64,000 bases of DNA from an uncultured Gemmatimonadales bacterium (GCA_963812035.1 CAWETG010000010.1:323534-387533), one strand, 5' to 3'. Positions 14,951 through 45,084 are shown, counted from the first letter of the stretch. A program made the numbers and translations. Notes: generated by a model from the sequence alone, not told the origin.

Positions 14951-15087
14951 GTCGGGCCGGCACCGCGCGAGCGCCGCTTGACGCCTGCGTGACGCTCGCC
15001 CGGTACATGCGGAGGGTGGCTCACACCCGCCGCGACCTCGCCTGCCGTGCCGCTGCCCCACACGATGGCCTCTCTGAGGAGTCGGCC

Positions 15088-16323: not shown

Positions 16324-16366
16324 AGCCCGGCCGCCAGTCACGAACCCGCGCCGGGCGGGCAGCGCG

Positions 16367-18952: not shown

Positions 18953-19023
18953 CCCCGTTCACTCCCCCTTCTTGACCTTCCACCTCGCCAAGAGCGAGGT
19001 TAGCAAGTCTATGGGGAATCGAC

Positions 19024-19908
19024 ATGTTTGACCAATTGCGCGCCTTTCACCGCCCCACGACCGTCTCCGCCGCCCTCCGCCTGTTGGCCGCCGAGCGCCG
19101 CGCCGGCGGCCGCGGCCGGTTCGTCGCCGGCGGCACCGACCTCGTGGTCCAGGGCGATCGCTCGCTCCGCTACCTCGTGGACATCACCCGCCTCCCGTTG
19201 CGCTACGTGAAGCGGCGCGGCGGTGGCTGGGCAATCGGCGCGACTTCGACCATGGCCGACCTCGAGCACGCCCCGGCGCTGCGGCGCTGCGCCGATGGGA
19301 TCGTCGCGCAGGCCGCCGGCACGGCCGGGTCCCCGCAGATCCGCAACATGGGCACCATCGGAGGCAACCTCGCCAACGCGTCGCCCGCCTGCGACCTCGC
19401 GCCGCCGCTGCTCGCGCTGGACGCGTGGCTTGTTCTCGCCGGCCCGGGCGCCCGCCGCACCGTGCCGCTGGACCGCTTCTTCCGCGGCGTGCACCGCACC
19501 GCCCTCAACGGCGGCCTGCTGGTGGAGATCGTGGTCCCGGCCCTGCCGCGGGCGACCGGCGGCCGCGCCGCCTGGTCGTTCCAGAAGCTGGGCCGCCTCC
19601 AGAGCGACATCGCCGTGGTGAACGCCGCCGCCGGCATCGTGCTCGACCGGAATGGCGGCTGCACCTGGGCGCGCATCGCCCTGGGCGCCGTGGCGGCCAC
19701 GCCGCTCCGGGCCCGTCGCGCGGAGGCGCTGCTGGTGGGGCGGGCATTCGACGCGACAGCCGTCACGGCGGCGGCGGAGCGCGCGGCCCTGGAGACACGG
19801 CCTGTGAGCGACGTCCGCGCCTCCGCCGAGTACCGCCGCGAGATGAGCCGCGTGTTGGTGGCGCGTGCCCTCACCGAGTGCCTTGAGCGTATCAGGAGGA
19901 TCCGGTGA
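19024..19908 (+). CDS. molybdenum hydroxylase FAD-binding (medium) subunit, CoxM/XdhB/YgfM-like
   Basis: 294 aa. AGGTDLVV and GTIGGNLANASPA.D motifs of the FAD_binding_5 family. Confidence 0.85.
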   Translation: MFDQLRAFHRPTTVSAALRLLAAERRAGGRGRFVAGGTDLVVQGDRSLRYLVDITRLPLRYVKRRGGGWAIGATSTMADLEHAPALRRCADGIVAQAAGTAGSPQIRNMGTIGGNLANASPACDLAPPLLALDAWLVLAGPGARRTVPLDRFFRGVHRTALNGGLLVEIVVPALPRATGGRAAWSFQKLGRLQSDIAVVNAAAGIVLDRNGGCTWARIALGAVAATPLRARRAEALLVGRAFDATAVTAAAERAALETRPVSDVRASAEYRREMSRVLVARALTECLERIRRIR

Positions 19909-20444
19909 GCGACCTCGTGATCCGCGTGACCGTCAACGGCAAGCCGCAGCGCTGGACCGTGGCGCCGGGCGACCTGCTGCTGGACGTGCTCCGCCGGGAG
20001 GGCTACTGGGGCGTCAAGAAGGGCTGCGAAACCGGCGAGTGCGGAGCCTGTGTCGTGCTGGTGGACGGGAATCCGATCAACTCCTGCCTGATGTTCGCCG
20101 CCCAGGCCGATGGCCGGAAGCTCACGACGATCGAAGGCGTCGCGGACCGCGACCAGCTCGACCCGATTCAGGAGGCGTTCCTCGATCACGGCGCCGTGCA
20201 GTGCGGCTACTGCACGCCGGCGATGGTCCTGTGCACCAAGGCACTGCTCGCCCGCTCGCCGCACCCCAGCGAGACCGAAGTGCGCGAGATGCTGGCCGGC
20301 GTGTTCTGCCGTTGCACCGGCTACCAGAAGCCGGTCGAGGCGGTCCTGGCGGCGGCCAAGGTCCGCGCCCCCACCACGTCCGGCGCCACCGCAGGATCTG
20401 GTGCGGCGAAGCGGGGCGCGCCACGGCGGAGGGCCAAGCGATGA
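19905..20444 (+). CDS. molybdenum hydroxylase (2Fe-2S)-binding small subunit
   Basis: 179 aa. CETGECGAC and QCGYCTPA cluster motifs. GTG start overlaps the upstream stop. Confidence 0.9.
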   Translation: MSDLVIRVTVNGKPQRWTVAPGDLLLDVLRREGYWGVKKGCETGECGACVVLVDGNPINSCLMFAAQADGRKLTTIEGVADRDQLDPIQEAFLDHGAVQCGYCTPAMVLCTKALLARSPHPSETEVREMLAGVFCRCTGYQKPVEAVLAAAKVRAPTTSGATAGSGAAKRGAPRRRAKR

Positions 20445-22756
20445 GCGAGCGGAGCGTCGTCGGCCGGCGCGTCCGGAAGGTGGACGGCTTCAAGCTCGTC
20501 ACCGGAAAGACCGCCTTCACGGACGATATCGAGCTGCCGGGCATGCTGATCGGCAAGATCCTCGGCAGCCCGCACGCCCACGCCCGCATCAAGCGCATCG
20601 ACACGCGCCGCGCGAAGGCGTTGCCCGGCGTGCACGCGGTCCTCACCTGGCAGGACGTGCCGCGCGTCCCGCACACCACCGCCGGCCAGGCGTGGCCCGA
20701 GCCGTCGCCCTACGACACCTACCTGCTCGACTCGAAGGTCCGGCACGTGGGCGATCGGGTGGCCGCGGTCGCCGCCGAGACCCGGGCCATCGCCGAGGAA
20801 GCGCTGCGCCGCATCGAGGTGGAGTACGAGGTCCTGCCGCCCGTGCTCGACCTGGAGCACGCGATGGACCGCGGAGCGCCGGTGATCCACGACGAGCCGG
20901 ACTCGAAGGGCATCGACGACGCCGCGCGCAACCTCGCGGGGGAGATCCACCGCGAGCTGGGCAACGTGGAAGAGGGGTTCAAGCAGGCGGACCTGATCCT
21001 CGAGCGCGAGTACCGGACGCCGCGCCAGCAGCACTGCTCCATCGAGCCGCACATCGTCATCAGCTGGCTCGACGCCGACAACCGGCTGGTGATCCGCACC
21101 AGCACCCAGATCCCGTTCCACGTGCGCCGCCAGGTAGCGATGATCCTGCAGCTCCCGGTGAGCCGCGTGCACGTGATCAAGCCGCGCATCGGGGGTGGCT
21201 TCGGCGGCAAGCAGGAGATGGTGATCGAGGACATCTGCGCCGCGCTCGCCCTCGCCGCGCACCGGCCCGTCAAGCTGGAGTACACGCGCCACGAGGAGTT
21301 CTTCATGGCGCGCACCCGTCACCCGCAGGTCCTGCGGCTCAAGATGGGCGTGAAGCAGGACGGCACCATCGTCGCGCACCACATGAAGGTGCTGGCGGCG
21401 ACGGGCGCCTACGGCGGCCACTGCACGACCGTGCAGGGCAACACCGGCAGCAAGGTGCTGCCGCTGTACCGGTCGCCGAACCTCAAGTTCGACTGCGACG
21501 TGGTGTACCTGAACGCGCCGCCCGCGGGCGCCTTCCGGGGCTACGGGTGCCCGCAGGGGTTCTTCGCGCAGGAAAGCCTGGTGGACGAAATCGCCCACGA
21601 GCTGGGGATGGACCCCATCGCCTTCCGGCTCAAGAACGCGATCCGCCTGGGCGATACGGACGAGTTGTCGGCGCAGCTCGGCGAGGGCCGCAAGGGGCTG
21701 GCGCGCGTCATCCGGAGCTGCGGCCTGCCGCAGTGCCTCGAGCGCGGCGCCGCCGCCATCGGCTGGAAGGAAAAGCGCAACGGTGGCCGCCGCGGTACGG
21801 GCCGCGTGCTGCACGGCGTCGGCGTCGCGTGCTCGATGCAGGGCAGCGGGATCGCCGGTGTGGACTTCGCCGGCGCCTTCTTCAAGCTGAACGAGGACGG
21901 CTCGTTCAACCTGCAGGTGGGCGCCACCGACCTCGGCACCGGGAGCGACACGGTGCTGGCGCAGATCGCCGCGGAGACCCTCGGTGTCAGCCTCGACAAG
22001 ATCATCATCTACTCCTCCGACACCGACTTCACGCCGTTCGACGTCGGCGCCTACGCCTCCAGCACCACCATCATCTCCGGCGGCGCGGTGAAGAAGGCGG
22101 CGGAGAAGACCCGCGACGCGGTGTGCCGCTTCGCCGCCCAGCTGCTCGAGGCCCCGCCGGAGGCGCTGACCTGCCGCGACAACCGGATCTTCGCGCCCGG
22201 CGGCAAGTCGGTCACGATGTCCGAGGTGGCGATGTTCGCCTTTTACAGGGAGAAGACGCAGGTGATGGAGGGCGCGTCCCACTTCAACACCGACAGTCCG
22301 CCGCCGTTCTGCGCCAGCTTCGCCGAGGTCGCGGTCGACACCGAGACCGGCCAGGTCCGCGTCCCGCACCTGGTGACCGCCGTGGACCTCGGCGTCGCCA
22401 TCAACCCGATGCAGGCCGAGGGGCAGGCCGAGGGCGCCGTGGCGCAGGGCCTCGGCTACACCCTCGCCGAGGAGATGGTGCTCGACGACGCTGGGCGGGT
22501 GGTCAATGCCAATTTCTGCGACTACAAGATCTTCACGGCCAAGGACATGCCCAAACTCACGACGATCCTGGTGGAGACCGACGAGCCGCTGGGCCCCTAC
22601 GGCGCCAAGTCCATCGCCGAGGTGCCGATCAACGGGGTCGCCCCGGCGGTGGCCAATGCGGTCTTCGACGCCGCCGGGATCCGGATGCGGCGGCTGCCGA
22701 TCCGTCCCGACGCGGTGCTGCAGGCGCTGCGCGAGCAGGCGAAGGCGGCCCGATGA
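20441..22756 (+). CDS. molybdopterin-binding large subunit of xanthine dehydrogenase/aldehyde oxidase family
   Basis: ATG 20441 overlaps the small-subunit stop (ATGA). 771 aa in frame within track ORF 19865..22756. N-terminal VDGFKLVTGKTAFTDD and GGGFGGK motifs. Confidence 0.9.
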   Translation: MSERSVVGRRVRKVDGFKLVTGKTAFTDDIELPGMLIGKILGSPHAHARIKRIDTRRAKALPGVHAVLTWQDVPRVPHTTAGQAWPEPSPYDTYLLDSKVRHVGDRVAAVAAETRAIAEEALRRIEVEYEVLPPVLDLEHAMDRGAPVIHDEPDSKGIDDAARNLAGEIHRELGNVEEGFKQADLILEREYRTPRQQHCSIEPHIVISWLDADNRLVIRTSTQIPFHVRRQVAMILQLPVSRVHVIKPRIGGGFGGKQEMVIEDICAALALAAHRPVKLEYTRHEEFFMARTRHPQVLRLKMGVKQDGTIVAHHMKVLAATGAYGGHCTTVQGNTGSKVLPLYRSPNLKFDCDVVYLNAPPAGAFRGYGCPQGFFAQESLVDEIAHELGMDPIAFRLKNAIRLGDTDELSAQLGEGRKGLARVIRSCGLPQCLERGAAAIGWKEKRNGGRRGTGRVLHGVGVACSMQGSGIAGVDFAGAFFKLNEDGSFNLQVGATDLGTGSDTVLAQIAAETLGVSLDKIIIYSSDTDFTPFDVGAYASSTTIISGGAVKKAAEKTRDAVCRFAAQLLEAPPEALTCRDNRIFAPGGKSVTMSEVAMFAFYREKTQVMEGASHFNTDSPPPFCASFAEVAVDTETGQVRVPHLVTAVDLGVAINPMQAEGQAEGAVAQGLGYTLAEEMVLDDAGRVVNANFCDYKIFTAKDMPKLTTILVETDEPLGPYGAKSIAEVPINGVAPAVANAVFDAAGIRMRRLPIRPDAVLQALREQAKAAR

Positions 22757-23982
22757 GCGCCCTCGCGACGGTGCAGGCGAAGCGGGATGCGATCCTCACG
22801 GGCGCGGCCGCATACCAGGACGACATCGTCCGCTTCCTGCGGGACCTGATCGCCATCCCGGCGGTGAGCTGCCAGGAGGGCCCCGTCATCGCGCGGATCA
22901 AGGCGGAGATGCAGCAGGTCGGCTTCGACGAGATCCGCGTGGACGGGATGGGCAACATCCTCGGGCGGATCGGGTCGGGGAAGCGCGTCGTCATGATGGA
23001 CTCGCACACCGACACCGTCGGGGTCGGCGACCCGAAGGAGTGGACCTTCGACCCCTACAAGGGGAAGGTCGAGGACGGCTGCGTGTGGGGACGCGGGGCG
23101 AGCGACCAGCGCGCCGGGATGGCGTGCCTGGTGTACGCCGGGAAGCTGATCAAGGACCTCAGGCTGGCAGACGACGTCACCGTCTGGATGTGCGGCTCGG
23201 TCGAAGAGGAGGACAGCGACGGCATTGCCTGGCTCTACATCCTGCGCGAGGACGGGATCACGCCCGACGGGATCGTGATCACGGAGCCGACCAACCTGCG
23301 CGTGTACCGCGGGCACCGCGGCAGGATGGAGATCGAGGTGCACGTCCCCGGGGTGAGCTGCCACGCCAGCGCGCCGGAGCGGGGCGCCAATCCGATCTAC
23401 AAGGCGACGCACATCATCCAGCAGGTCGAGGCGCTCAACGCGCGCCTCAAGCAGGACGCTTTCCTCGGCAAGGGCACCGTGGCGGTGACGGACATCCGGG
23501 CGCTGACCCCTTCCCAGTGCGCCGTGCCGTCCGCCTGCATCTTCCATCTCGACCGGCGGCTCACCGCGGGTGAGACCAGGGAGAGCGCGGTGGCCGAGAT
23601 CCGCGCCCTGCCGGCGCTCCAGGACGCCGAGGTCGAGGTATTGCAGTACAAGGTGAAGAGCTGGACGGGGCTGGAGTTTGGGATGGAGAAGTACTATCCC
23701 ACCTGGAAGCTGGAGGAGCATCACCCGCTCGTGCGCGCGGGGGTCGAGACCTACCGGACGTTGTTCGACAAGGACCCGGTCGTGGACAAGTGGGTGTTCA
23801 GCACCAACGGCGTCGCCACGATGGGGATCATGCAGGTTCCGACCATCGGTTTCGGCCCTGGGGAGGAGGACAACGCCCACAGCGCCCTCGAGCGGGTGCC
23901 GATCGCGCACCTGGTGACGGCGACGCAGTTCTACGCTGCGTTCCCGCTCGTCTTCCAGCACACGCTCGAGCGCGGCGCGTAG
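22753..23982 (+). CDS. ygeY: YgeY-family M20 peptidase/hydrolase (selenium-metabolism-linked hydrolase family)
   Basis: ATG 22753 overlaps the upstream stop (ATGA). 409 aa; HTDTVGVGD, GRGASDQ and SVEEED metal-ligand blocks of M20/ArgE-type enzymes. Gene context with ygeW/ssnA. Confidence 0.8.
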   Translation: MSALATVQAKRDAILTGAAAYQDDIVRFLRDLIAIPAVSCQEGPVIARIKAEMQQVGFDEIRVDGMGNILGRIGSGKRVVMMDSHTDTVGVGDPKEWTFDPYKGKVEDGCVWGRGASDQRAGMACLVYAGKLIKDLRLADDVTVWMCGSVEEEDSDGIAWLYILREDGITPDGIVITEPTNLRVYRGHRGRMEIEVHVPGVSCHASAPERGANPIYKATHIIQQVEALNARLKQDAFLGKGTVAVTDIRALTPSQCAVPSACIFHLDRRLTAGETRESAVAEIRALPALQDAEVEVLQYKVKSWTGLEFGMEKYYPTWKLEEHHPLVRAGVETYRTLFDKDPVVDKWVFSTNGVATMGIMQVPTIGFGPGEEDNAHSALERVPIAHLVTATQFYAAFPLVFQHTLERGA

Positions 23983-26222
23983 TGGCCGAGCTCGTCCCGC
24001 TGCCACTCGACCTGCTCGCCAAGCGGGCGCTCCTGGAGTACGAGCGCCAGGGCCAGATCTTCGACCTGCCCAGGGCGAAGTTCTTCCGCGGCGACCCCGC
24101 GCTCGACACCTCCGTGCGCTTCCACGGCCGCCGCGCCGCGACCCCCGTGGGCCCCGCCGCCGGCCCGCACGATCAGCTGGCACAGAACATCGTGCTGGCA
24201 TGGCTCGCCGGCGCCCGGATCATCGAGCTCAAGACGGTGCAGGTCCTGGACGAGCTGAAGATCCCGCGACCGTGCATCGACGCCGCCAACGTGGGATACA
24301 ACGTCGAGTGGTCGCAGGAGCTGAAGCTCGAGGCCTCGCTCAGGGAGTACGTCGGCGCCGCGATGCTGATCGAGATCCTCACGGCGGCGGGGATCCCCGA
24401 GGGCGTCTCTGCGGCCCAGCGCGACACCCTGTTCGACATGAGCGTGGGGTACGGACTCGAGGGCATCCGGTCGGAGCGGGTGTCGGGCTGGATCCGGTCG
24501 ATGAAGGACGCCACCCGCGTGGTGGACGAGCTGCGCACCAGGCTCACGGGCCCGCTCGCCAGGTACCGGGACCTGCCCTTCCCCACCCGGATCAGCGACG
24601 CGGTGACCCTGTCCACCTTCCACGGTTGCCCTGCCGACGAGATCGAGGCGATCGCCTCCTTCCTCCTTGCCGACTTGGACGTGGATGTCTGCATCAAGCT
24701 GAACCCGACGCTGCTCGGCAGGCCCGAGGTGGACCACCTGTTGCACGACGTGATGGGGTACCGCGACATCCAGACGAGCCAGGAGGCGTTCGACAAGGAC
24801 CTGCAGTTCACGGACGCGCTGGCGATGATCCCCCGGCTCCAGGGGGTGGCGCGCGCCCGGGGCCGGCAGCTCGCGGTCAAGTGCAGCAACACGCTGGTGG
24901 TGCGGAACCACCGCACCGTCTTCACCGACGATGTGATGTACCTCTCGGGTCCGCCCCTGCACGTCATCACGATGAACCTGGTGCAGCGGCTGCGCGAATC
25001 GCTCGGCGCCTCGATCCCCATCTCGTTTTCGGCCGGCCTCGACGCCCACAACGTGGCCAACGCGGTGGCGCTCAACCTGGTGCCGACCACGACCTGCACC
25101 GACCTGCTCAGGCCCGGCGGCTACGGCCGGCTCTCCCGCTACGCGGCCAATCTCGAGGGCCGGATGGGCGAGCTGGGCGTGACGCGCGTGCCCGACCTCA
25201 TCCTGCGGCACGCCGGGCAGGCTCCGGCCGCCGTGCGGGCGGTGGCGGCAGCGTGCGTCGCCGCGACCGCCGCCGCGGCCGGCGAGCAGGACGGAGGCGC
25301 GACCGAGCGGGCGCACCGTTGGCTGCACGAGCACCTGGAGCCGCGGCTGGTGAGCTGGGCCGCCGGCGCCGCGGGGGCCGCGCCGCTGGACGGGCTCTGC
25401 GCCAGCCTGGCCGAGGACTTCGAGCGCAACGTCGCCCAGACCGTGCCGGCCGCCGTCGCGGCGCCGTGCCGCTCGCGGCTCGCGGCGCTCGAGCGGACCC
25501 TGGTGGACGCCGCGGGCGTGCTCAACACTCCGGTCATCGTCGAGCAGACGACGGCCGACCCGCGCTACGGCTGGGCGAAGAACCAGGGCGTGCCCCGCAA
25601 GATCGGCTCCAAGCTCTGGCTGTACGACTGCGTCAACTGCGACAAGTGCGTGCCCGTCTGCCCCAACGACGCCAACTTCGTCTACGAGGGTCCCGCGATG
25701 GCCGTGAGGTTCGAGGACGTCGAGATCGATGCGAAGGGACGCTGGCGCACCCTGCCCGGCGAGGAGGAGTTCGCCATCGGCCAGCCGCACCAGCTCGCCA
25801 ACTACGCCGACTTGTGCAACGACTGCGGCAACTGCGACGTCTTCTGCCCGGAGGACGGCGGTCCCCAGGTCCTGAAGCCGCGCTTCTTCGGCAGCATGGA
25901 GAGCTACCGCAAGTCCGCAGGCAGGAACGGATTCTTCCTGGAGACGGAAGGCGCGCGGCGCACGATCCACGGCACCATCGAGGGCCGCGGCTACCGCCTC
26001 GAGCTGGACGCGGCAAGCGGCCACGCCGTGTTCGACGACGGCGTGGCGGTGACCCGGCTCGCACTCGAGGGCAATGCGGTGCTGGATTGCCGCCTCGCGC
26101 CGGGCGCGGCGCCGCCGCAACTCCACCGGGTCGAGATGGCGAAGTACCTCACGCTGCGGCACCTCGCCGATGCGGTCGCCGACCCGAAGCGCGTCAACTT
26201 CGTCAACGTCACGGCACTGTGA
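23982..26222 (+). CDS. YgfK-like Fe-S oxidoreductase lacking the GltD-like flavin/NAD(P)H module
   Basis: GTG 23982 overlaps the ygeY stop. TPVGPAAGPHDQLAQNIVLAWLAGARIIELKTVQVLD...PCIDA closely parallels my recollection of the E. coli YgfK N-terminus. C-terminal CVNCDKCVPVCP and CNDCGNCDVFCP are 4Fe-4S motifs. Only 746 aa, against roughly 1030 in YgfK. Confidence 0.75.
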   Translation: MAELVPLPLDLLAKRALLEYERQGQIFDLPRAKFFRGDPALDTSVRFHGRRAATPVGPAAGPHDQLAQNIVLAWLAGARIIELKTVQVLDELKIPRPCIDAANVGYNVEWSQELKLEASLREYVGAAMLIEILTAAGIPEGVSAAQRDTLFDMSVGYGLEGIRSERVSGWIRSMKDATRVVDELRTRLTGPLARYRDLPFPTRISDAVTLSTFHGCPADEIEAIASFLLADLDVDVCIKLNPTLLGRPEVDHLLHDVMGYRDIQTSQEAFDKDLQFTDALAMIPRLQGVARARGRQLAVKCSNTLVVRNHRTVFTDDVMYLSGPPLHVITMNLVQRLRESLGASIPISFSAGLDAHNVANAVALNLVPTTTCTDLLRPGGYGRLSRYAANLEGRMGELGVTRVPDLILRHAGQAPAAVRAVAAACVAATAAAAGEQDGGATERAHRWLHEHLEPRLVSWAAGAAGAAPLDGLCASLAEDFERNVAQTVPAAVAAPCRSRLAALERTLVDAAGVLNTPVIVEQTTADPRYGWAKNQGVPRKIGSKLWLYDCVNCDKCVPVCPNDANFVYEGPAMAVRFEDVEIDAKGRWRTLPGEEEFAIGQPHQLANYADLCNDCGNCDVFCPEDGGPQVLKPRFFGSMESYRKSAGRNGFFLETEGARRTIHGTIEGRGYRLELDAASGHAVFDDGVAVTRLALEGNAVLDCRLAPGAAPPQLHRVEMAKYLTLRHLADAVADPKRVNFVNVTAL

Positions 26223-26235
26223 GGGAGGAGCGGAG

Positions 26236-27276
26236 GTGACCCGCCAGGCAGCCGCGAAGCGACGGCACGCCCTGTTCAAGGGCAAGGACTGGATCACCAC
26301 CGAGGAGTGGAGCGACCAGGAGCTTCTCACGCTGCTCGACGTCTCGGGCGACCTGAAGCGGCGCTTCAAGGAGCATCGGCCGCACCGCTGGCTTCCGGAC
26401 AAAACCATCTTCCTGATGTTCTTCGACAAGTCCACGCGGACCCGCAACTCGTTCGAGGCCGGGATCACGCAGCTCGGCGGGCACGGGCACTTCCTCACCG
26501 CCGACGCGATGCAGGTGTCGCACGGCGAGAGCCCCAAGGACACCGGCATCATCCTCTCGCGCTACGGCCACGCCATCGCGATCCGCCACGACCTGATCCC
26601 GGGGGAAGGCAACGCCTACATGCGCGAGGTCGCGAAGTGGGCGGACGTGCCCGTGATCAACATGCAGTGCGACGTGGATCACCCGTGCCAGACGCTGGCC
26701 GACCTCATGACCATCCGCGAGAAGCTGGGCTCGAACCTCGAGGGGAAGAAGCTCGCGGTGAGCTGGGCCTACGCGCCGAGCTACGCCAAGCCGCTGTCGG
26801 TGCCGCAAGGCCTGATTATGCTGATGCCGCGGTTCGGGATGGACGTGACGCTCGCCCACCCGCCGGAGTACTTCCTGATGCCGGAGACGCTCGAGGCGGC
26901 GCGCCGCAACGCGAAGCAGGCGGGCACGAAGTTCGAGGTCGTGGACGACATGGACGCGGCGTTCGCGGGCGCCGACGTGGTGATCCCGAAGAGCTGGGGG
27001 TGCCTGGAGACGATGGGAGCGAAGCCGGAGGAGTCGCTCCGCATCGCCAGGCAGTACACACGCTGGATCTGTGACGCTCCCCGGCTCGCGCGTGCCAGGC
27101 GCGGCGCGCTGTACATGCATCCGCTCCCGGCCGACCGGGGGAACGAGGTGACGGACGAGGTGATCGACGGGCCGCAGTCGGTGGTGTACGACGAGGCGGA
27201 GAACCGGCTCCACACGGCCAAGGCGATCATGGCGCTCACCATGGCCGACCAGCCGGTCGAGTACGAAGCGCCGTGA
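26236..27276 (+). CDS. ygeW: YgeW-type knotted carbamoyltransferase
   Basis: GTG 26236 (GGGAGGA upstream). STRTRNSFE, GNAYMREV, MQCDVDHPCQ, KPLSVPQG, RFGMDVTLAHP and MHPLPA match YgeW-specific blocks. Confidence 0.9.
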   Translation: MTRQAAAKRRHALFKGKDWITTEEWSDQELLTLLDVSGDLKRRFKEHRPHRWLPDKTIFLMFFDKSTRTRNSFEAGITQLGGHGHFLTADAMQVSHGESPKDTGIILSRYGHAIAIRHDLIPGEGNAYMREVAKWADVPVINMQCDVDHPCQTLADLMTIREKLGSNLEGKKLAVSWAYAPSYAKPLSVPQGLIMLMPRFGMDVTLAHPPEYFLMPETLEAARRNAKQAGTKFEVVDDMDAAFAGADVVIPKSWGCLETMGAKPEESLRIARQYTRWICDAPRLARARRGALYMHPLPADRGNEVTDEVIDGPQSVVYDEAENRLHTAKAIMALTMADQPVEYEAP

Positions 27277-28637
27277 TCATCCGGAACGCGCGGGTGGTGA
27301 CGTTCGATGGCGCCAACCGGGTGCTGGAGGGCGCGTCGGTGGAGATTGGTGCCGACGGCGCGATCAGGAGCGTGAAGCAGGGGCTAGGGACTAGGGGTGA
27401 GGGGCTAGGGGCCCTGACCCCTGACCCCCAGCCCCTAGCCCCCGCTTCTACCGTCCTCGACGCCGGCGGCCGTCTCCTCATGCCTGCCTTGATCAACTGC
27501 CACACGCATCTGTACAGCACTCTCGCCCGCGGGATCACGCTGCCGGGCCGCGCCCCCAGGAACTTCCCCGAGATTCTCAAGCAGCTGTGGTGGCGGCTCG
27601 ACCGGGCCCTCAACCCCGACGACGTTTACTACAGTGCCCTGGTTGGCCTGGTGGACGGCGCCAAGAACGGCGTCGGGACCCTGGTAGACCATCACTCGAG
27701 CCCCAACGCCTGCGCCGGGAGTCTTGATGTGATCGAGCGCGCCTTCCGTGAGGTGGGGCTCAGGGGCGTGCTCTGCTACGAGACCAGCGACCGCGACGGG
27801 CCAGCCAAGGCGCAGGCCGCGCTGGCGGAGAACATCCGCTTCATCGAGCGGACCGGCCGCGCGGGCGACGGCCTGATCGCCGCGAGCTTCGGGCTGCACG
27901 CGTCGTTCACCCTCTCGGACCGGACGCTGCGGCAGGCCGTCGAGGCCGAAGAGAGCCTCGGGGCAGGCTTCCACATCCACGTTGCCGAGGACCGATCCGA
28001 TCTCGACCATGCGCGGCGCCGCTTCAAGCAGACCGTGGTGGCGCGGCTCCGGGACCTGGGCGTGATGACCGACCGCACGCTCGCGGCCCACTGCATCCAC
28101 GTCACGTCCGGCGACGTCGCCGCGCTGGCCAGGCTCGGGGCCAACGTCGCGCACAATCCGCAGTCCAACAGCAACAACGCCGTGGGAATCGCGAAGCTGC
28201 TGGAGCTGGTGAAGGCGGGCGTGCTGGTCGGCCTCGGCTCCGACGGCTACTCTCCCCGGATGTGGGAGGAGTTCAAGACCGCCTTCCACCTCCAGAAGGT
28301 GCGTACCGGCGACCCGCGCGTGGGCTATGCGGAGGCCTACGCGGCGGCGTTCCTGAACAACCGCGCGATCGCGAAGAAGCTGTGGGGGATGGAGATCGGC
28401 CGCATCGAGGCCGGGGCGCGGGCGGACCTCATCCTGGTGGACTACTACCCGCCGACCCCGCTCGACGCGCACAACCTGTCCGGGCACCTGCTGTTCGGCA
28501 TCGCCAACGCGCCGATCGACACGCTGATCGTGGACGGCCGCGTGGTACTCAGGGACAAGCGCTGCGTCACCGTGGACGAAGCTGCGGTGGCCGAGCGCGC
28601 CACCCGACAAGCGAAGGCACTATGGCAACGGTTCTGA
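27273..28637 (+). CDS. ssnA: SsnA-family aminohydrolase
   Basis: GTG 27273 overlaps the ygeW stop (GTGA). PALINCHTHLYS, LWWRLDRAL, VDHHSSP, HIHVAED and GSDG blocks match SsnA. Contains the in-frame repeat hairpin at 27380-27443. Confidence 0.85.
   Translation: MIIRNARVVTFDGANRVLEGASVEIGADGAIRSVKQGLGTRGEGLGALTPDPQPLAPASTVLDAGGRLLMPALINCHTHLYSTLARGITLPGRAPRNFPEILKQLWWRLDRALNPDDVYYSALVGLVDGAKNGVGTLVDHHSSPNACAGSLDVIERAFREVGLRGVLCYETSDRDGPAKAQAALAENIRFIERTGRAGDGLIAASFGLHASFTLSDRTLRQAVEAEESLGAGFHIHVAEDRSDLDHARRRFKQTVVARLRDLGVMTDRTLAAHCIHVTSGDVAALARLGANVAHNPQSNSNNAVGIAKLLELVKAGVLVGLGSDGYSPRMWEEFKTAFHLQKVRTGDPRVGYAEAYAAAFLNNRAIAKKLWGMEIGRIEAGARADLILVDYYPPTPLDAHNLSGHLLFGIANAPIDTLIVDGRVVLRDKRCVTVDEAAVAERATRQAKALWQRF
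27380..27443. repeat. GGGGCTA-type inverted tandem-repeat hairpin inserted in frame in ssnA
   Basis: The G-arm ggggctagggactaggggtgaggggctagggg is followed directly by the C-arm ccctgacccctgacccccagcccctagcccc. It translates as GLGTRGEGLGALTPDPQPLAP. Confidence 0.85.
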
Positions 28638-29995
28638 CACCTGGCCCCACGTACGCCGAGATGCGCCATCCCTCCAAGCTCCCTCCGGAGCTGCGGCGCC
28701 GGGCGGTGGAGCGGGCGCGAGGCAACGAGCGCGACCCGCTTAACCTCTTCAACATCACCTGGCGGAACCGGGAGGACCGGGTGCGCCACGTCGTGTTGCC
28801 GCGCGAGCTGACGGGGGTGGCGGCGAACATCGTGGTGCTCCTGGGCAAGGACTTCCCTTCGGGCAGCCACAAGGTGGGGCCCGCCTACGCCACGCTGGCG
28901 GAGGGCGAGCTGGCCGGCGAGATCCGGCCCGGCGAGAACACGATCATCGGCCCCTCGACCGGCAACTTCGGGATCGGGACGGCGTACATCGCCCACCTGA
29001 TGGGATACCGATCCATCGTCATCATGCCCGAGCAGATGAGCACCGAGCGCTACGAGCGGATCCGCCGCTATGGCGGTGAGTTGGAGCTCACCCCGGGCTC
29101 GGAGAGCGACGTCATCCTCGTGCTCGAGCGGACCGAGCATTTCAAGCGGGATCCCAAGAACAAGGTCCTGGCGCAGTTCGAGCTGCTCCCCAACTACCGG
29201 TTCCACCGTTACGTGACGGGCGAGGCCGCGCTCGACGCGGCGAGTGGGGTCGGCAACGGGCGGGTCGCCGCCTTCGTATCGGCCCCCGGCTCCGCCGGCA
29301 CCCTGGCGGCGGGCGACGAGATCAAGGTCCGCTTCCCGGACTGCGTGGTGTGCGCGGTCGAGCCGGAGGAGTGCGCGACCCTCACGAACAACGGCCGGGG
29401 GACGCACCGCATCGAGGGAATCGGCGACAAGATGGTCGCGCTGATCCACAACGTGCTCACGACCGATTATGTGGCACGGGTGCACGACGACGACTGCGTG
29501 ATGGGGCTCAAGGTCCTCGAGCACGGGCGCCGGGTCGTCGAGCGGCAGCTGCGGCTCACGGACGGCGCGCTGGAGCCGCTGGCTGGCTGGTTCGGCATTT
29601 CCAGCGTCTGCAACATCCTGGGCGCCATCAAGACGGCCAAGCTGCTGAACCTCGCGGCGGACCAGAACGTCGTGACCATCGCGACCGATGGCTTCGATCG
29701 CTACCCGTCGGTCATGCAGGACCTGGAGCGCCGCCGCGGCCCCATCACCGATGCCACGATGGCAGAGTGGTTCGACCGGATCTTCCGCGGCGCGACGGGC
29801 GGGCAGATCCTGGACGTGCGGTCGGGCGTCCAGAAGGAGCGGCTGTTCCGCCAGAAGCGCGAGATCTGGAGCAAGTTCGGCTATACCGACGCCTACCTCG
29901 AGCGGATGAAGTCGCAGTCGTTCTGGGACGAGGAGTACGCGAAGATCGAGCCGATCGACCGTGACCTGGCGCTGAAGCGGGATCTCGAGGGCTGA
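28622..29995 (+). CDS. PLP-dependent fold-type II (Trp-synthase-beta superfamily) enzyme, unknown reaction
   Basis: ATG 28622 within track ORF 28262..29995. SGSHKVGPAY (candidate PLP-Lys), GNFGIG glycine loop, 457 aa with a C-terminal extension. Confidence 0.65.
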   Translation: MATVLTPGPTYAEMRHPSKLPPELRRRAVERARGNERDPLNLFNITWRNREDRVRHVVLPRELTGVAANIVVLLGKDFPSGSHKVGPAYATLAEGELAGEIRPGENTIIGPSTGNFGIGTAYIAHLMGYRSIVIMPEQMSTERYERIRRYGGELELTPGSESDVILVLERTEHFKRDPKNKVLAQFELLPNYRFHRYVTGEAALDAASGVGNGRVAAFVSAPGSAGTLAAGDEIKVRFPDCVVCAVEPEECATLTNNGRGTHRIEGIGDKMVALIHNVLTTDYVARVHDDDCVMGLKVLEHGRRVVERQLRLTDGALEPLAGWFGISSVCNILGAIKTAKLLNLAADQNVVTIATDGFDRYPSVMQDLERRRGPITDATMAEWFDRIFRGATGGQILDVRSGVQKERLFRQKREIWSKFGYTDAYLERMKSQSFWDEEYAKIEPIDRDLALKRDLEG

Positions 29996-31053
29996 TGAGC
30001 GAGTTGCGCGACGTGGTCGCGGCGCTGGAGCGCGCTCCCGCCGGTTGGGGCGCGGCCGTGCTCGCCACGCTGGTGAAGGTCGCCGGGTCGGCGTACTCCG
30101 GGCCCGGGGCGCGGATGGTCGTGCTCCCCGACGCCACCATCGCCGGCACGTTCGGCGCCGGCTGCTTCGAGCAGGATCTTGTCGCGCACGCCGAGCGAGT
30201 CCGGGCGTCCGGAGCGCCGGCGCTGGTCCACTACGACCTCACCGAGGACGACGACAAGCCGTGGGGCCTCGGGATGGGGTGCCACGGCAAGCTCGACTTG
30301 CTCCTCGAGCCCGTGCCCGCCGGGAAGACGCCGGAGCACCTCGCCTTCCTGCGCGAGGCCGCGCGCGCGCGGCAGGCCGCGGTGGTCGCCACGCTGTTCC
30401 GGACCGGCGACGACCCGGCGCTCGCGCTCGGGGACCGGCTGCTCGTGCGTGCCGACGGGCAGACGGCGGGCCGCCTGCTCGAAAGCGGCCTGGTCCCGCT
30501 GCTCCTTAGGGAGGCGCGCGCCGCGCTGGTCGACGGGCGCGCCCGCTTCTGCGTCGTTCCGACCGCGCGGGCCGAAGCCGAGCTGCTGCTCGAGTACGTC
30601 GGCCCTCCCCTCGCGTTGGTGGTGGGCGGGGCCGGCCGCGATACCGCACCTTTGGTCCATCTCGCCGGCGAGCTGGGCTGGGAGGCGAGAGTGCTGGCGA
30701 AGGACGAGCTGCCGTCGGTCCTGGATGGCCGGACCGCAGCGCTCGTCATGAGCCACAACTACGAACGCGACCTGGCGATGCTCGCCGCGTTCCTCACGTC
30801 GCCCTGCCGCTATGTGGGCGTACTGGGCGGACAGGCACGCACCCGGCAGCTGCTCGCCGAACTCGCCAGGCGCGGCTCGCCGGTCACCAAGGCTCAGCTC
30901 TCCCGGCTGCACGCACCCGTCGGCCTCGACCTCGGCGCCGAGACGCCGAGCGAAGTGGCGCTGTCGATCGTGGCGGAGATCCAGGCGGTGTTCGCCGGCC
31001 GTCAGGGCGGCGCGTTGCGCGAGCGCAAGGGCCCGATCCACGACCGGCCCTGA
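29995..31053 (+). CDS. XdhC/CoxI-family molybdenum hydroxylase maturation protein
   Basis: 352 aa. N-terminal XdhC_CoxI block (ATLVKVAGSAYSGPGARM) and C-terminal Rossmann-like block (LVVGGAGRDTAPL). Start overlaps the upstream stop. Confidence 0.85.
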   Translation: MSELRDVVAALERAPAGWGAAVLATLVKVAGSAYSGPGARMVVLPDATIAGTFGAGCFEQDLVAHAERVRASGAPALVHYDLTEDDDKPWGLGMGCHGKLDLLLEPVPAGKTPEHLAFLREAARARQAAVVATLFRTGDDPALALGDRLLVRADGQTAGRLLESGLVPLLLREARAALVDGRARFCVVPTARAEAELLLEYVGPPLALVVGGAGRDTAPLVHLAGELGWEARVLAKDELPSVLDGRTAALVMSHNYERDLAMLAAFLTSPCRYVGVLGGQARTRQLLAELARRGSPVTKAQLSRLHAPVGLDLGAETPSEVALSIVAEIQAVFAGRQGGALRERKGPIHDRP

Positions 31054-31084
31054 CGCCTCGGTCGCGCCGGTCGTCGGCGTCGTC

Positions 31085-31645
31085 GTGCTCGCCGCCGGCG
31101 CCTCCCGGAGATTGCCCGGCCCCAAGCAGCTGCTGCTGTTCCACGGGGTGACGCTGGTCCGCCGCGCCGCCCAGGCCGCGGTCGAGGCTGCCTGCGGGCC
31201 GGTGGCGGTGGTGCTGAGTGCCGCGGCGCCCCGGATCCGCCAGGAGCTGACGGATCTCGACCTGCACATCGTCGAGAACCGGCAGGCTGCGAAGGGGCTG
31301 AGCACGTCGGTCCGGGCCGGGCTCGACGCGCTCACGAAGACCGCGAGCCTCGACGCCGCGCTGTTCATGACCTGTGACCAACCCCTCGTGACCGCGGAAA
31401 TTCTCCGGACGATCGTCGCCGCCTTCGCGTCCGGCCGCCCGCGCGCCGTGGCCTGCGCGTACGCGGGGACGGTGGGGGTGCCCGCCCTGTTCTCGCGTGC
31501 TCTGTTCGCGGAGTTGCTGGCGCTGGACGGCGACGTGGGCGCGAGGCTGGTCCTGCAGCGTCACGCGAGCGAGACCGTCCGGATCCCGTTTGAGCCCGGC
31601 TCCCTGGACTTGGACACGCCCGAGGACGTGGGCAGGCTGTCGTAG
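31085..31645 (+). CDS. mocA: molybdenum cofactor cytidylyltransferase (MocA/YgfJ-like)
   Basis: LAAGASRRL nucleotidyltransferase motif and TCDQP. The only canonical start in frame after the xdhC stop is GTG 31085, which leaves just 1 residue before the motif, so the start is uncertain. Confidence 0.7.
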   Translation: MLAAGASRRLPGPKQLLLFHGVTLVRRAAQAAVEAACGPVAVVLSAAAPRIRQELTDLDLHIVENRQAAKGLSTSVRAGLDALTKTASLDAALFMTCDQPLVTAEILRTIVAAFASGRPRAVACAYAGTVGVPALFSRALFAELLALDGDVGARLVLQRHASETVRIPFEPGSLDLDTPEDVGRLS

Positions 31646-31814
31646 CCCTCACCCAGAACCAGTTGAACGTCTTTCCGCGCGCCGTTGGGCGGACACGACC
31701 CCACTGCTGACCCCGGTCCGCAACGGTGGGCTATCACTCCCCGGCTTCCCATGTCCAGCGCCATTCACGCGCATAGGGCCAGCCCAGTGGCGCCCGGTGT
31801 GGCGGGCCGACTGA

Positions 31815-32975
<1,161 letters not shown>

Positions 32976-32988
32976 CCAAGACAGGTGC

Positions 32989-33171
32989 TAACGCTGGGGT
33001 GTTATGCTGCTGGCGTACGCAAGGTCGCCACGGCTGCATACGGACGACCGGTGCCGGAAGTCGTTCTGGCATCGAGATTTGCGGTCGCGGGGGATGCCGC
33101 GCGGTCGGCGAAAGGCTGCAGCCGAATGCGCTGTCGGCGCCCAAGACTGTTCAGCATACTACTAGTTAGGC
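32989..33171 (+). other. probable attC site (divergent sequence type), R'' half split by IS110 copy a
   Basis: (cc)C|TAAC at the IS junction, and GTTAGGC at 33165-33171. The inner dyad is gttatgctg / cagcatac. It is longer (~185 nt) than, and unrelated in sequence to, the other attCs, so an attI-like site cannot be excluded. Confidence 0.4.
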
Positions 33172-33182
33172 GGCATTCACCT

Positions 33183-33680
33183 ATGCACTTGAGATCTTGG
33201 CTGGCATCTGCTGTAACTGCAGTCGCCTGCGCCCACGCCGCGCCGGCCCCGCCGCAGGCCCGCCTACCGGGCGCCGAGTGCTACGCTTCCCGTAGCATCA
33301 CTTGGCCCCTCGGTGACACCACCACCTACCGTGGCATAGTCCTAGGGTCGTGGCTTGTCCTGACGCCGGAGCCCTACGCCGCCGGCAGTTCCCGGCTCAG
33401 GGCGTTCGCATACGACAATAATGGCAATGCTCAGGAAGGCACGTGGTGGCAGGACGGCGACACGCTCACGTTGACGTTGGCCGTGCACGACCTGTTCAAC
33501 TATGCCACCCTCTTGCTGACACGGACGGCGACAGGTCTTGTCGGAACGGGTTCCGGTACCACTGACGTGCTCGTTCAGACTGCGCCTGGTCACTACTATG
33601 AGGGCACTCGCCATGCATGGGTCGCTCGCTTCGAACGCGTTGAGTGCGAGCGGTTACCGGCATGGCATCACGGCAGTTGA
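33183..33680 (+). CDS. cassette ORF: small secreted/lipoprotein, unknown function
   Basis: Track ORF 32985..33680 trimmed to ATG 33183, 12 nt after the GTTAGGC core. The signal is MHLRSWLASAVTAVACAHA. 165 aa, followed by an attC. Confidence 0.55.
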   Translation: MHLRSWLASAVTAVACAHAAPAPPQARLPGAECYASRSITWPLGDTTTYRGIVLGSWLVLTPEPYAAGSSRLRAFAYDNNGNAQEGTWWQDGDTLTLTLAVHDLFNYATLLLTRTATGLVGTGSGTTDVLVQTAPGHYYEGTRHAWVARFERVECERLPAWHHGS

Positions 33681-33690
33681 TTGGAATGCC

Positions 33691-33817
33691 GCCTAACCAG
33701 CGCCTGCAGCGGGCGGGCACGGCCGCGTGACGCCGCCTAACGCTCGGGGGTTAGGCTGGTTGGTGGTGGATGGCGGGGCCCGCGGCCGGCCCGCCGCTGA
33801 GGCGCGATTCGTTAGAC
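33691..33817 (+). other. integron attC site A (127 bp, subtype 1)
   Basis: R'' GCCTAAC 33691-33697 and R' GTTAGAC 33811-33817. Imperfect dyad cagcgcctgcagcgggcgggc / gcccgccgctgaggcgcg with unpaired bases. The first ~70 nt closely resemble site E. Confidence 0.8.
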
Positions 33818-33855
33818 GGCGGCACCATGAATCTAGCTGCACTGAGGCAAGAGCC

Positions 33856-34302
33856 ATGACGGATATTGGCGTGGCGCGACGCACCACCGCCGCGCGTGCC
33901 TTGCGCCTAGGTGGGGGGCTGGTCTGGATCGCCGCTGTGATTCACTTTGTTGCGTTCCCGTTCCTCCAACGCACCGTCGCAAGCACCCTCCCACCTGCCG
34001 CGTACGCGTTCGTGTGGCCGCCGTTCGCATTCAGCTTCTTGCTGGATGGGATTCTGCTCCTCCCACTGGGCTTTACGGCTCTCTATTGCGCTGGCGGCGT
34101 TCTGCGCGGCGAGCGCTGGGCAACGGTGCTTGGCCTCATCACCGCTATCGTCGTCCTTATGCTGCCCATCGTCCTTGGACTAGCCATGGGGTTCAGGTAC
34201 TTCTCCGCCGCGCCATTCTTGCTGGCTACGCTCGTTGTTCTCGCCGCTGGCGTCGCCATGCTGGTGTCACTTGTGCAGTTGGCTCGGAGCGCCGCCGTCT
34301 AA
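33856..34302 (+). CDS. cassette ORF: 4-TM membrane protein, unknown function
   Basis: Track ORF 33727..34302 trimmed to ATG 33856, downstream of attC A. 148 aa. The TAA stop lies inside the attC R'' heptamer GTCTAAC. Confidence 0.6.
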   Translation: MTDIGVARRTTAARALRLGGGLVWIAAVIHFVAFPFLQRTVASTLPPAAYAFVWPPFAFSFLLDGILLLPLGFTALYCAGGVLRGERWATVLGLITAIVVLMLPIVLGLAMGFRYFSAAPFLLATLVVLAAGVAMLVSLVQLARSAAV

Positions 34303-34409
34303 CCAGCGCCTGCAGCGGGCGGGCGCTCCGGGCTCCACGGTTGAGCGGCTGGTGAGGGAAGGTGAGGTAATGCAGGCGTTGTGTGGCTGGCGGGCGGTCG
34401 CCCGCCGCT
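34297..34409 (+). other. integron attC site B, 5' part (subtype 2), interrupted by an IS1111-like element
   Basis: R'' GTCTAAC 34297-34303. The sequence closely resembles sites C and D up to ...gtcgcccgccgct, where the IS begins. Confidence 0.8.
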
Positions 34410-43801: not shown

Positions 43802-43863
43802 GCCCAGCGCCTGCCTGGCGGCGCCCGCAGCGCGCGAGCGCTCGCGGCTCGCCCGGGCACCGG

Positions 43864-45051: not shown

Positions 45052-45084
45052 GTCATTTCTCCGGTTACGTACCCTCGTTCACCA

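Follow-up and report, generated by a model that had tools for sequence, protein, structure and literature searches.

A run of ten genes at positions 19024-31645 of a genomic stretch from an uncultured Gemmatimonadales bacterium (GCA_963812035.1, CAWETG010000010.1:323534-387533) probably encodes a soil-type form of the reductive urate (2,8-dioxopurine) catabolic pathway. Positions are those of the whole 64,000-nt stretch analysed (∼70% G+C), here called the window. The pathway itself is known and was solved biochemically in 2025 (PMC12507026; bioRxiv 10.1101/2025.04.24.650524), later than the background available to an earlier reading of the window made from the sequence alone (the original prediction), and the findings suggest that the version present here is a second, structurally distinct one. 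That reading, which took the genes for a compact form of the ygeW/ygeY/ssnA/ygfK/xdhD purine-urate pathway set in a foreign genomic background, is supported, with YgeY and SsnA passing the family models. The case is built on gene content, the placement of the products in protein families, synteny and the absence of alternative genes, all of which were observed directly.

Organization of the gene cluster

The products of the ten open frames were scanned against NCBIfam and Pfam, and E. coli query proteins (NC_000913.3) were compared with the whole genome, a 3.31 Mb assembly of 10 contigs scored as 100% complete, using tblastn. The ten genes share one strand in the order flavin adenine dinucleotide (FAD) subunit, 2Fe-2S subunit, molybdenum (Mo) subunit, YgeY, a YgfK-like protein, a YgeW-like carbamoyltransferase, SsnA, a pyridoxal phosphate (PLP) enzyme, XdhC and MocA (Table 1), and the coordinates and family scans bear out the order first proposed. 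Family matches of the ten products range from E = 1e-37 to 1e-225.

The junctions measure, in gene order, -4, -4, -4, -1, +13, -4, -16, -1 and +31 nt. The first three are GTGA, ATGA and ATGA overlaps, YgeY and the YgfK-like gene are joined by TAGTG, and the 13 nt gap before the carbamoyltransferase gene is preceded by GGGAGGAG. A GTGA overlap links the carbamoyltransferase and SsnA genes, SsnA and PLP genes overlap by 16 nt, PLP and XdhC share TGATG, and the 31 nt gap separates xdhC from mocA. Hence 7 of the 9 junctions overlap and the only gaps are of 13 and 31 nt, in keeping with the earlier statement that nearly all junctions are overlaps or gaps of 35 nt at most. This tight translational coupling counts for an operon serving one pathway.

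Table 1. Genes of the cluster and linked genes in the window.
Predicted product	Position	Strand	Basis
FAD-binding subunit, XdhB/CoxM type	19024-19908	+	Pfam FAD_binding_5 + CO_deh_flav_C
2x[2Fe-2S] subunit	19905-20444	+	Pfam Fer2 + Fer2_2
Molybdopterin subunit, XdhD-like lineage	20441-22756	+	HMM, insert, tree
YgeY-family M20 amidohydrolase	22753-23982	+	TIGR03526, NF009555
Short YgfK (FMN barrel + C-terminal 2x[4Fe-4S])	23982-26222	+	Alignment, AF2 model
Compact YgeW-like carbamoyltransferase, OTCase fold	26236-27276	+	PDB match, motifs, tree
SsnA amidohydrolase	27273-28637	+	NF005540, TIGR03314
CysK-fold (fold-type-II) PLP enzyme	28622-29995	+	Pfam PALP
XdhC-family molybdenum-cofactor insertion chaperone	29995-31053	+	Pfam XdhC_CoxI + XdhC_C
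MocA-type molybdenum cofactor cytidylyltransferase	31085-31645	+	Pfam NTP_transf_3 8.6e-36
8-oxoguanine deaminase homologue	13562-14950	+	NF006055
HyuA-type D-hydantoinase/dihydropyrimidinase	45085-46488	-	TIGR02033
HMM, hidden Markov model; FMN, flavin mononucleotide; AF2, AlphaFold2; OTCase, ornithine carbamoyltransferase.

The start of mocA had been placed at 31061, where the codon is GTC and so not a start. The only in-frame starts are GTG at 31085 and ATG at 30812; the latter would overlap xdhC by 242 nt and was rejected, and the start was set at GTG 31085. The family profile begins at ∼31076, with no canonical start codon there (region 31053-31090), and the chosen start trims ∼3 residues of the first beta-strand of MocA. 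A promoter and terminator scan of 18700-32100 gave nothing above shuffled expectation, and neither a riboswitch nor any other RNA family came up when 10000-48000 was scanned with Rfam.

Related loci in other genomes

A scan for the short YgfK described below, with one genome per species, returned at least 588 coding relatives, distributed among Acidobacteriota, Gemmatimonadota, Planctomycetota, Myxococcota and marine SAR324, and the pathway proteins were mapped onto the best 80 of these at least 588 loci. Two arrangements were distinguished. Type 1 (27 loci, all in Acidobacteriota, mostly Terriglobia and Bryobacterales, from peat and soil) has the order FAD-FeS-Mo-YgeY-short YgfK-carbamoyltransferase-(carbamate kinase)-SsnA-PLP, and its products are 57-84% identical to those of the window; carbamate kinase lies between the carbamoyltransferase gene and ssnA in 23 of the 27. 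Type 2, found in Gemmatimonadota, Planctomycetota, Myxococcota, SAR324, Vicinamibacteria and others, is looser in order and is composed of a FeS-Mo pair without an FAD subunit, usually beside short ygfK, plus hyuA, ssnA, the PLP gene, ygeY and a carbamoyltransferase gene. Neither ygeX nor a GltD-like gene is present in any of the 80 loci.

Within the genus of the window, short ygfK occurs in 9 of 12 genomes (72-84% identity), and the three congeners without it are 75-83% complete. Five congeners examined have the same gene order, xdhC and mocA included, and no carbamate kinase. Since the family matches are strong and 27 acidobacterial loci and five congeners share the order, the arrangement has not arisen by chance.

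Several type-2 clusters (L059, L066 and L077, from Gemmatimonadota; L016; L065) hold two distinct FeS-Mo pairs and no FAD subunit. Two such pairs would fit an exchange of electrons between an enzyme that oxidizes xanthine and one that reduces urate.

YgeY and SsnA

YgeY and SsnA both exceed the curated cut-offs of the family-specific models that had been put forward as a check; the proteins in the YgeW and YgfK positions score below the cut-offs of theirs. YgeY scores 553 bits on TIGR03526 (cut-off 321.5) and 540 on NF009555 (321), with residues 13-401 covering profile positions 3-393 of 395, and is 54% identical to E. coli YgeY. SsnA scores 505 bits on NF005540 (cut-off 444) and 495 on TIGR03314 (455.5) and shares 34% identity with its E. 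coli counterpart. SsnA is the marker that has been used for uricolytic clusters (Li et al. 2025, PMC12507026).

The molybdenum hydroxylase

The top NCBIfam models of the FAD subunit are glyceraldehyde dehydrogenase beta subunit and XdhB. It reaches 78 bits on the YgfM model TIGR03312 (cut-off 241), so it is not of the YgfM type, and is 33% identical to E. coli XdhB. The 2Fe-2S subunit shares 48% identity with E. coli XdhC. The Mo subunit, which is adjoined by this separate Fe-S gene and not fused to it as in XdhD, has XdhA_XDHase as its best NCBIfam model (751 bits, cut-off 780) and scores 625 bits over the Mo portion of the XdhD model TIGR03313 (cut-off 1102), on which E. coli XdhD, as a control, scores 2123. 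The hydroxylase had been described as CoxSML-style. Its three-subunit layout was confirmed, and the label itself was rejected for the catalytic subunit, which is of XdhD/XdhA type with an XdhD-specific insert and scores 335-405 bits on the CO-dehydrogenase models against 751 for the XdhA model.

That insert, LGEGRK, aligns with GAIGEGK of XdhD, E606 included, and XdhA is without it; Glu606 is an active-site residue of XdhD reported to be absent from XdhA (Li et al. 2025, PMC12507026). In the Mo-subunit tree XdhD is sister to the clade formed by the window and acidobacterial proteins (Shimodaira-Hasegawa approximate likelihood ratio test, SH-aLRT, 99), with XdhA outside (SH-aLRT 96). We propose that the catalytic subunit belongs to the XdhD lineage and is a putative reductase of urate to 2,8-dioxopurine (DOPDH).

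If the hydroxylase were an ordinary xanthine dehydrogenase with its XdhC and MocA, there might be no single pathway here, the other genes degrading hydantoins, dihydropyrimidines or N-carbamoyl amino acids. The best model of the Mo subunit, just under its cut-off, would agree with this, as would the facts that the other large Mo hydroxylase examined resembles 4-hydroxybenzoyl-CoA reductase, with no separate xanthine dehydrogenase evident, and that HyuA, YgeY-like M20 enzymes and carbamoyltransferases also serve in other pathways. Nevertheless, such a mixture is distinctly improbable in view of the seven overlapping junctions out of nine, the eight-gene core order kept in 27 acidobacterial loci at 57-84% identity, the co-occurrence of these families, differently ordered, in five or more additional phyla, and the passing of pathway-specific models by SsnA and YgeY.

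A second FeS/Mo/FAD hydroxylase set lies outside the window (G000:C1:876997-879806); its best model is 4-hydroxybenzoyl-CoA reductase alpha (789 bits, cut-off 995). No separate clear-cut xanthine dehydrogenase was evident among the large Mo hydroxylases examined in the genome.

A short form of YgfK

Members of the YgfK family TIGR03315 are ∼1,030 aa long and are composed of an N-terminal domain, a GltD-like FAD/NADPH module and a C-terminal ferredoxin domain. Residues 6-393 of the window protein align with residues 7-407 of E. coli YgfK at 40% identity, and residues 553-654 with 905-979. The intervening ∼490 aa (YgfK ∼410-900), which make up the GltD-like module, have no counterpart. Correspondingly, the protein scores 410 bits on TIGR03315 (cut-off 835), matching profile positions 5-396 and the C-terminal ferredoxin segment. 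Judged by its relatives, the short form is not a broken gene, because all 75 homologues examined in other genomes share the short length (618-783 aa) and both CxxCxxCxxxCP ferredoxin motifs are invariant in an alignment of 32 homologues.

A sequence search of the PDB found no relative of the short YgfK, and a fold search was therefore used. The AlphaFold2 model (predicted local distance difference test, pLDDT, 90.4) matched the FMN barrels of dihydroorotate dehydrogenase (DHOD) and dihydropyrimidine dehydrogenase (DPD) in Foldseek with a probability of 1.0 and target TM-scores of 0.6-0.68. The DHOD and DPD barrels superpose with the model, although sequence identity to this group (DPD, its split bacterial form PreA/PreT, and dihydroorotate dehydrogenase 1B) is only 13-18%. 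A 2x[4Fe-4S] domain closes the short YgfK, as it does the C-terminal part of DPD. The KLNP, SNTL and LS..CP motifs of the short YgfK resemble what we take to be the FMN and substrate motifs of the DHOD/DPD family. From alignment and model, the protein looks like the catalytic FMN/Fe-S half of a 2,8-dioxopurine reductase without the NADPH entry site.

YgfK (DOPOR) is NADPH-dependent (Liu et al. 2025, bioRxiv 10.1101/2025.04.24.650524). A GltD/PreT/YgfT-like partner that might replace the module was sought and none was found in the 80 related loci; in contrast to PreA/PreT, there is no PreT/GltD-like gene near short ygfK. The sole match to such a partner in the genome is ∼90 kb away on the same contig and 30% identical. 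Candidate electron donors are a ferredoxin or the Fe-S/FAD chain of the hydroxylase itself. A precedent for a 2,8-dioxopurine reductase without its own NAD(P)H/FAD module, presumably fed by ferredoxin, is UacX of Clostridioides difficile (Li et al. 2025, PMC12507026), which is PydA-like and has no FAD domain; however, UacX belongs to the DHOD family PF01180 and is not a derivative of YgfK.

The lack of an electron entry site might also mean that the hydroxylase works in the opposite direction. The Mo enzyme would then oxidize a less oxidized purine or other N-heterocycle and pass the electrons through its Fe-S chain to the short YgfK, by which the hydroxylated product would be reduced, making the first two steps redox-neutral with no need of NAD(P)H and leaving the later steps unchanged. 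An FAD subunit of the XdhB/CoxM-like type found in dehydrogenases, an aerobic host, the usual position of type-2 short ygfK beside a FAD-less FeS-Mo pair, the clusters with two such pairs, and the missing module with no partner in 80 loci are all points in favour of an oxidizing hydroxylase, but the Mo subunit has the insert peculiar to XdhD and clusters with that protein in the tree, and the conserved neighbour is an 8-oxoguanine deaminase, the product of which is urate. We know of no common metabolite that yields 2,8-dioxopurine on hydroxylation, and overall this alternative is unlikely. A reducing hydroxylase is in line with XdhD, which reduces urate with NADH (Li et al. 2025, PMC12507026).

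Approximately 30 of the 80 loci have short ygfK without other pathway genes within 10 kb (L010-L015, L018, L025, L032, L036, L039, L042, L043, L049, L052, L055-L057, L067, L069, L074 and others). The family may occur in other genomic contexts as well, or the pathway genes may be scattered in the genomes concerned.

The carbamoyltransferase

The product of the sixth gene was originally named YgeW. It fails both YgeW models, with 243 bits on NF005538 (cut-off 453) and 227 on TIGR03316 (cut-off 500), and scores 250 bits on the OTC model (cut-off 306); controls on the YgeW model gave 825 for E. coli YgeW, 582 for the protein of a genome from the same family (G014) and 243 for an acidobacterial homologue. 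True members of the knotted carbamoyltransferase family YgeW are ∼390 aa long and carry family insertions, while the window protein has 346 aa and an OTC-like C-terminus, with four YgeW insertions missing. What holds of the name is that clade, motifs of the second-substrate pocket and best PDB match (E. coli YgeW, 3q98) point to YgeW. Three blocks common to both proteins, GNAYMREV, NxQCDxDHPxQ and WAYxPSYxKPLSVPQG, are missing in OTCases, and the letters of the window sequence matching YgeW include SWAYAPSYAKPLSVPQG and NMQCDVDHPCQ. In a tree that samples families beyond YgeW, OTC and acetylornithine carbamoyltransferase (AOTC) thinly, all cluster-linked carbamoyltransferases form one clade with E. 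coli YgeW and E. faecalis 2yfk (47 rows, SH-aLRT 99), and ArgI, the genome's own ArgF, a P. furiosus OTC and an AOTC fall outside it. By this placement the window type forms a compact group, sister to the long canonical YgeW, and is not a generic OTCase.

A CysK-fold enzyme in the position of YgeX

As originally stated for the operon, there is no YgeX, and this was borne out genome-wide, the best match anywhere scoring 28 bits (cut-off 532). The PLP enzyme itself scores 25-28 bits on the diaminopropionate (DAP) ammonia-lyase (YgeX) models TIGR03528 and NF006058 (cut-offs 532 and 276) and 148 bits on the cysK model (cut-off 351). Its Schiff-base Lys, Asn loop and phosphate loop align with CysK, the lysine motif SGSHKVGP being atypical, and it has helical extensions at both ends, of ∼58 aa at the N-terminus and ∼95 aa at the C-terminus. 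The AlphaFold2 model (pLDDT 91.1) has beta-cyanoalanine synthase, CysK and cystathionine beta-synthase (CBS) as top Foldseek matches; fold, Schiff-base Lys, Asn loop and phosphate loop are thus shared with the beta-substituted alanine synthases, whereas the context is purine catabolism and not sulfur assimilation. The gene directly follows ssnA in all 27 type-1 loci. More than 7,900 homologues are named merely 'cysteine synthase' or 'PLP-dependent enzyme'.

We propose that the enzyme in the YgeX slot is a diaminopropionate (or albizziin) beta-lyase. Its substrates would be beta-substituted alanines, as diaminopropionate and albizziin are, and its exact substrate and stereochemistry are inferred. 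As CysK-fold enzymes are mostly beta-replacement synthases, including the top structural matches beta-cyanoalanine and cysteine synthase, and O-ureidoserine synthase is among the sequence matches, the downstream half could conceivably be biosynthetic, with the PLP enzyme and the carbamoyltransferase making a beta-substituted alanine (diaminopropionate, albizziin) or a ureido compound. This is scarcely credible given that the PLP gene is always linked to ssnA, ygeY and a urate-type hydroxylase, and in relatives to carbamate kinase, that the linked gene set is catabolic and ATP-yielding, and that the surroundings contain no genes for non-ribosomal peptide synthetases, siderophores or antibiotics.

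A threonine-synthase-like PLP gene with an N-terminal zinc ribbon (NF006050, 308 bits, cut-off 303) co-occurs in 27 of the 80 loci. Type-1 loci have it as a partner of the 8-oxoguanine deaminase gene (L002-L005, L045, L058, L063, L076 and L078; ∼1.3-3.6 kb, just upstream of the deaminase gene); it also occurs in L059 (18706-19944), L016, L020, L040, L051, L054, L061, L064-L066 and L075. The genome of the window has no close copy, the best match (C9:63052-64197) being 31-38% identical and probably the housekeeping thrC, and the CysK-fold enzyme therefore stands alone here.

Linked and unlinked genes of the proposed pathway

The 8-oxoguanine-deaminase-like gene and the hydantoinase gene pointed out originally are both real, passing family cut-offs, and are tied to the cluster by synteny in relatives. 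The former scores 670 bits on the 8-oxoguanine deaminase equivalog NF006055 (cut-off 532). In 10 acidobacterial loci a gene for a protein 67-72% identical to it immediately precedes the FAD-subunit gene, and congeners G007 and G010 have it in the same upstream position as the window. It is a probable feeder enzyme outside the operon, converting 8-oxoguanine to urate. The hydantoinase scores 619 bits on TIGR02033 (cut-off 393) and shares 44% identity with E. coli HyuA over 460 aa, its full length (tblastn). Its gene lies ∼13 kb (13.4 kb) past the operon; in G007, where the orthologue is 88% identical, the gap is 1.2 kb beyond mocA. In G014 hyuA adjoins the XdhC-MocA genes, and in the acidobacterial locus L053 it follows the PLP gene. 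The enzyme is the probable catalyst of hydantoin-ring opening.

MocA scores 136 bits on TIGR03310 (cut-off 186). As first noted, the operon contains no carbamate kinase gene; one is present on contig C9 (108906-109850), adjoining sucC. The original link to the selenium-dependent molybdenum hydroxylase system does not apply here, as neither YqeB (TIGR03309) nor YqeC (TIGR03172) has a match in the complete genome. A gene for SelD is present outside the window (G000:C1:936327-937262, 391 bits) and has one in-frame TGA, and SelD may be a selenoprotein in this organism despite the absence of YqeB and YqeC. SelD is needed by the Clostridium sporogenes enzymes, and YqeB and YqeC occur in all gut carriers examined (Liu et al. 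2025, bioRxiv 10.1101/2025.04.24.650524). Uricase and 2-oxo-4-hydroxy-4-carboxy-5-ureidoimidazoline (OHCU) decarboxylase were likewise not found in the genome, and because this is complete the cluster is the sole visible urate route. Two haem-copper oxidases are encoded, from which the organism is predicted to be an aerobe.

The intervening region 31646-45084 contains IS110-type elements, an integron cassette array and genes for a TMEM260-like glycosyltransferase, a periplasmic binding protein and a GH53 galactanase. Upstream of the operon, genes for a kynureninase, a cyclase-family (kynurenine formamidase-like) protein and the 8-oxoguanine deaminase run head to tail on the plus strand (11845-14950), the last two being translationally coupled by an apparent 4-nt overlap (13562 vs 13565); to find genes of tryptophan and purine catabolism side by side is unexpected. 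On the minus strand, 14947-16437 is a 496-aa open frame without a Pfam match that is 63% identical over ∼410 aa to a frame in the same position in G010, and is probably a real gene without assigned function. Another minus-strand gene encodes an 861-aa fusion of aspartokinase (AA_kinase and ACT) and a diaminopimelate-type decarboxylase (16367-18952), which is divergent from the operon and is in the same position in four congeners.

Proposed pathway

Steps were assigned from the similarity of the proteins to their E. coli and C. sporogenes homologues, in a scheme that follows Li et al. and Liu et al., and every step has a candidate gene, HyuA (45085-46488) and the carbamate kinase on C9 included. 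All substrates and the electron donor are inferred from homology and synteny. Urate, from outside or from 8-oxoguanine via the linked deaminase, would be dehydroxylated at C6 to 2,8-dioxopurine by the three-subunit FAD/2Fe-2S/Mo enzyme. The short YgfK, with FMN and two 4Fe-4S clusters, would reduce the pyrimidine ring and, because it lacks the NADPH/FAD module, would receive its electrons from ferredoxin or from the Fe-S/FAD chain of the hydroxylase. SsnA would open the reduced pyrimidine ring, and the unlinked HyuA-type hydantoinase would open the hydantoin to give 2,3-diureidopropionate. The compact YgeW-like enzyme is predicted to phosphorolyse one ureido group of this compound, yielding carbamoyl phosphate, which would be converted to ATP by the C9 carbamate kinase or used in biosynthesis. 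YgeY would hydrolyse the remaining ureido group to leave 2,3-diaminopropionate, from which the CysK-fold PLP enzyme, replacing YgeX, would eliminate the beta-substituent, releasing pyruvate and ammonia. XdhC and MocA would mature a sulfurated cytosine-dinucleotide cofactor, so that the YqeB/YqeC selenium-cofactor system would not be needed.

Several points weigh against this scheme. Of the seven catalytic proteins, three fall short of their family cut-offs, namely the Mo subunit and the YgfK-like and YgeW-like proteins. The Mo subunit in particular has a slightly higher raw HMM score with the XdhA model (751 bits) than with that of XdhD (625 bits) and shares 38% identity with each. No electron-input module for the short YgfK was found at this locus or in the 80 related loci. 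The organisms in which the known pathway was characterized are anaerobes, whereas this host encodes two haem-copper oxidases, and no homologue of UacT, XanQ or GhxQ above 60 bits is present in the genome. The CysK fold family is better known for beta-replacement than for deamination of DAP and is usually L-specific, while HyuA-type enzymes are D-selective. HyuA also belongs to a general dihydropyrimidinase family and could serve pyrimidine catabolism instead.

Origin of the cluster

Other genera of the same family have the type-2 arrangement, with a canonical long YgeW and a Mo subunit ∼33% identical to that of the window. In the Mo-subunit tree the window's genus is nested inside the Acidobacteriota (SH-aLRT 95-100), and in the carbamoyltransferase tree it groups with them (SH-aLRT 97); a genome of the same order groups with named Gemmatimonadota metagenome-assembled genomes in both trees. 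The nesting points to an old horizontal transfer. By contrast, XdhC, MocA and HyuA have their nearest counterparts within the family itself (51%, 50% and 73% identity to G014). Their genes are missing from the acidobacterial loci, apart from hyuA in L053, and xdhC is at the same position in all five congeners. The simplest reading of these relationships is that the eight-gene core was transferred long ago from an acidobacterial lineage to the ancestor of the genus, where it would have come to sit beside the native xdhC, mocA and hyuA and have lost the in-operon carbamate kinase.

Comparison with known systems

The E. coli K-12 cluster (ygeW-ygeX-ygeY-hyuA-yqeA ... mocA-ygfK-ssnA-ygfM-xdhD; PMC12507026) encodes proteins 34-54% identical to those of the window, and the two share the families for urate dehydroxylation, ring reduction, ring opening, ureido cleavage and MocA maturation. 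They differ in the hydroxylase, which in E. coli is XdhD with a fused Fe-S domain plus YgfM and here has three subunits with an XdhB-like flavoprotein; in YgfK, which has the ∼490-aa NADPH/FAD module in E. coli only; and in YgeW, the window protein being 50 aa shorter and below the family cut-off. Here the CysK-fold enzyme takes the place of YgeX, an XdhC chaperone is encoded but YqeB and YqeC are not, hyuA and carbamate kinase lie away from the operon, and both the sigma-54 regulator YgeV and a purine permease are lacking.

The pathway of C. sporogenes, made up of DOPDH (XdhAC), DOPOR (YgfK), SsnA, HyuA, YgeW, YqeA, YgeY and YgeX (bioRxiv 10.1101/2025.04.24.650524), has the same overall logic, and in both organisms carbamate kinase is encoded off-cluster. 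However, its DOPOR is NADPH-dependent, whereas the NADPH module is absent here, and its enzymes need SelD, with YqeB and YqeC in gut carriers, whereas here YqeB and YqeC are missing and a SelD gene is present. C. difficile differs further in using the hydrolase UacY instead of a carbamoyltransferase and an XdhD without an FAD subunit.

The phyla reported in the SsnA survey are Pseudomonadota, Bacillota, Chloroflexota, Actinomycetota, Spirochaetota and Elusimicrobiota (Li et al. 2025, PMC12507026), and the pathway was described as enriched in host-associated Bacillota (Liu et al. 2025, bioRxiv 10.1101/2025.04.24.650524). In contrast to the latter survey, the variant described here occurs in Acidobacteriota, Gemmatimonadota and other phyla of soil, peat and marine origin. 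In the literature searched, no description of this variant was found, in Acidobacteriota or in soil, and nothing that places ssnA in Acidobacteriota.

Implications

The pathway has so far been presented as anaerobic, selenium-dependent and mainly host-associated. The second version would need neither the YqeB/YqeC selenium-cofactor system nor an NADPH-linked reductase, and its terminal lyase would be a different one. Some carriers of the short YgfK, like this genome, respire oxygen and have no uricase, and the findings suggest that the reductive route is also common in soil bacteria without the usual oxygen-dependent route.

A bolder reading, which we regard as doubtful, is that the short YgfK docks on the Mo hydroxylase, so that one FAD/Fe-S chain feeds both two-electron reductions, that the FAD-less type-2 clusters carry out a redox-neutral dearomatization in which an oxidizing hydroxylase would pass its electrons straight to the reductase, that the 'cysteine synthase' family is a diaminopropionate (or albizziin) beta-lyase, and that the route is free of selenium and operates in air. 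If so, it would be a main route of urate nitrogen turnover in soils.

If the reductive pathway proposed for the operon is true, models of urate and purine nitrogen turnover in soils and peat would change. Functions would be gained for two very large mis-annotated families, the 'cysteine synthase'-like PLP enzymes and the unassigned OTCase-like proteins, and selenium-independent enzymes would become available for engineered urate-lowering strains.

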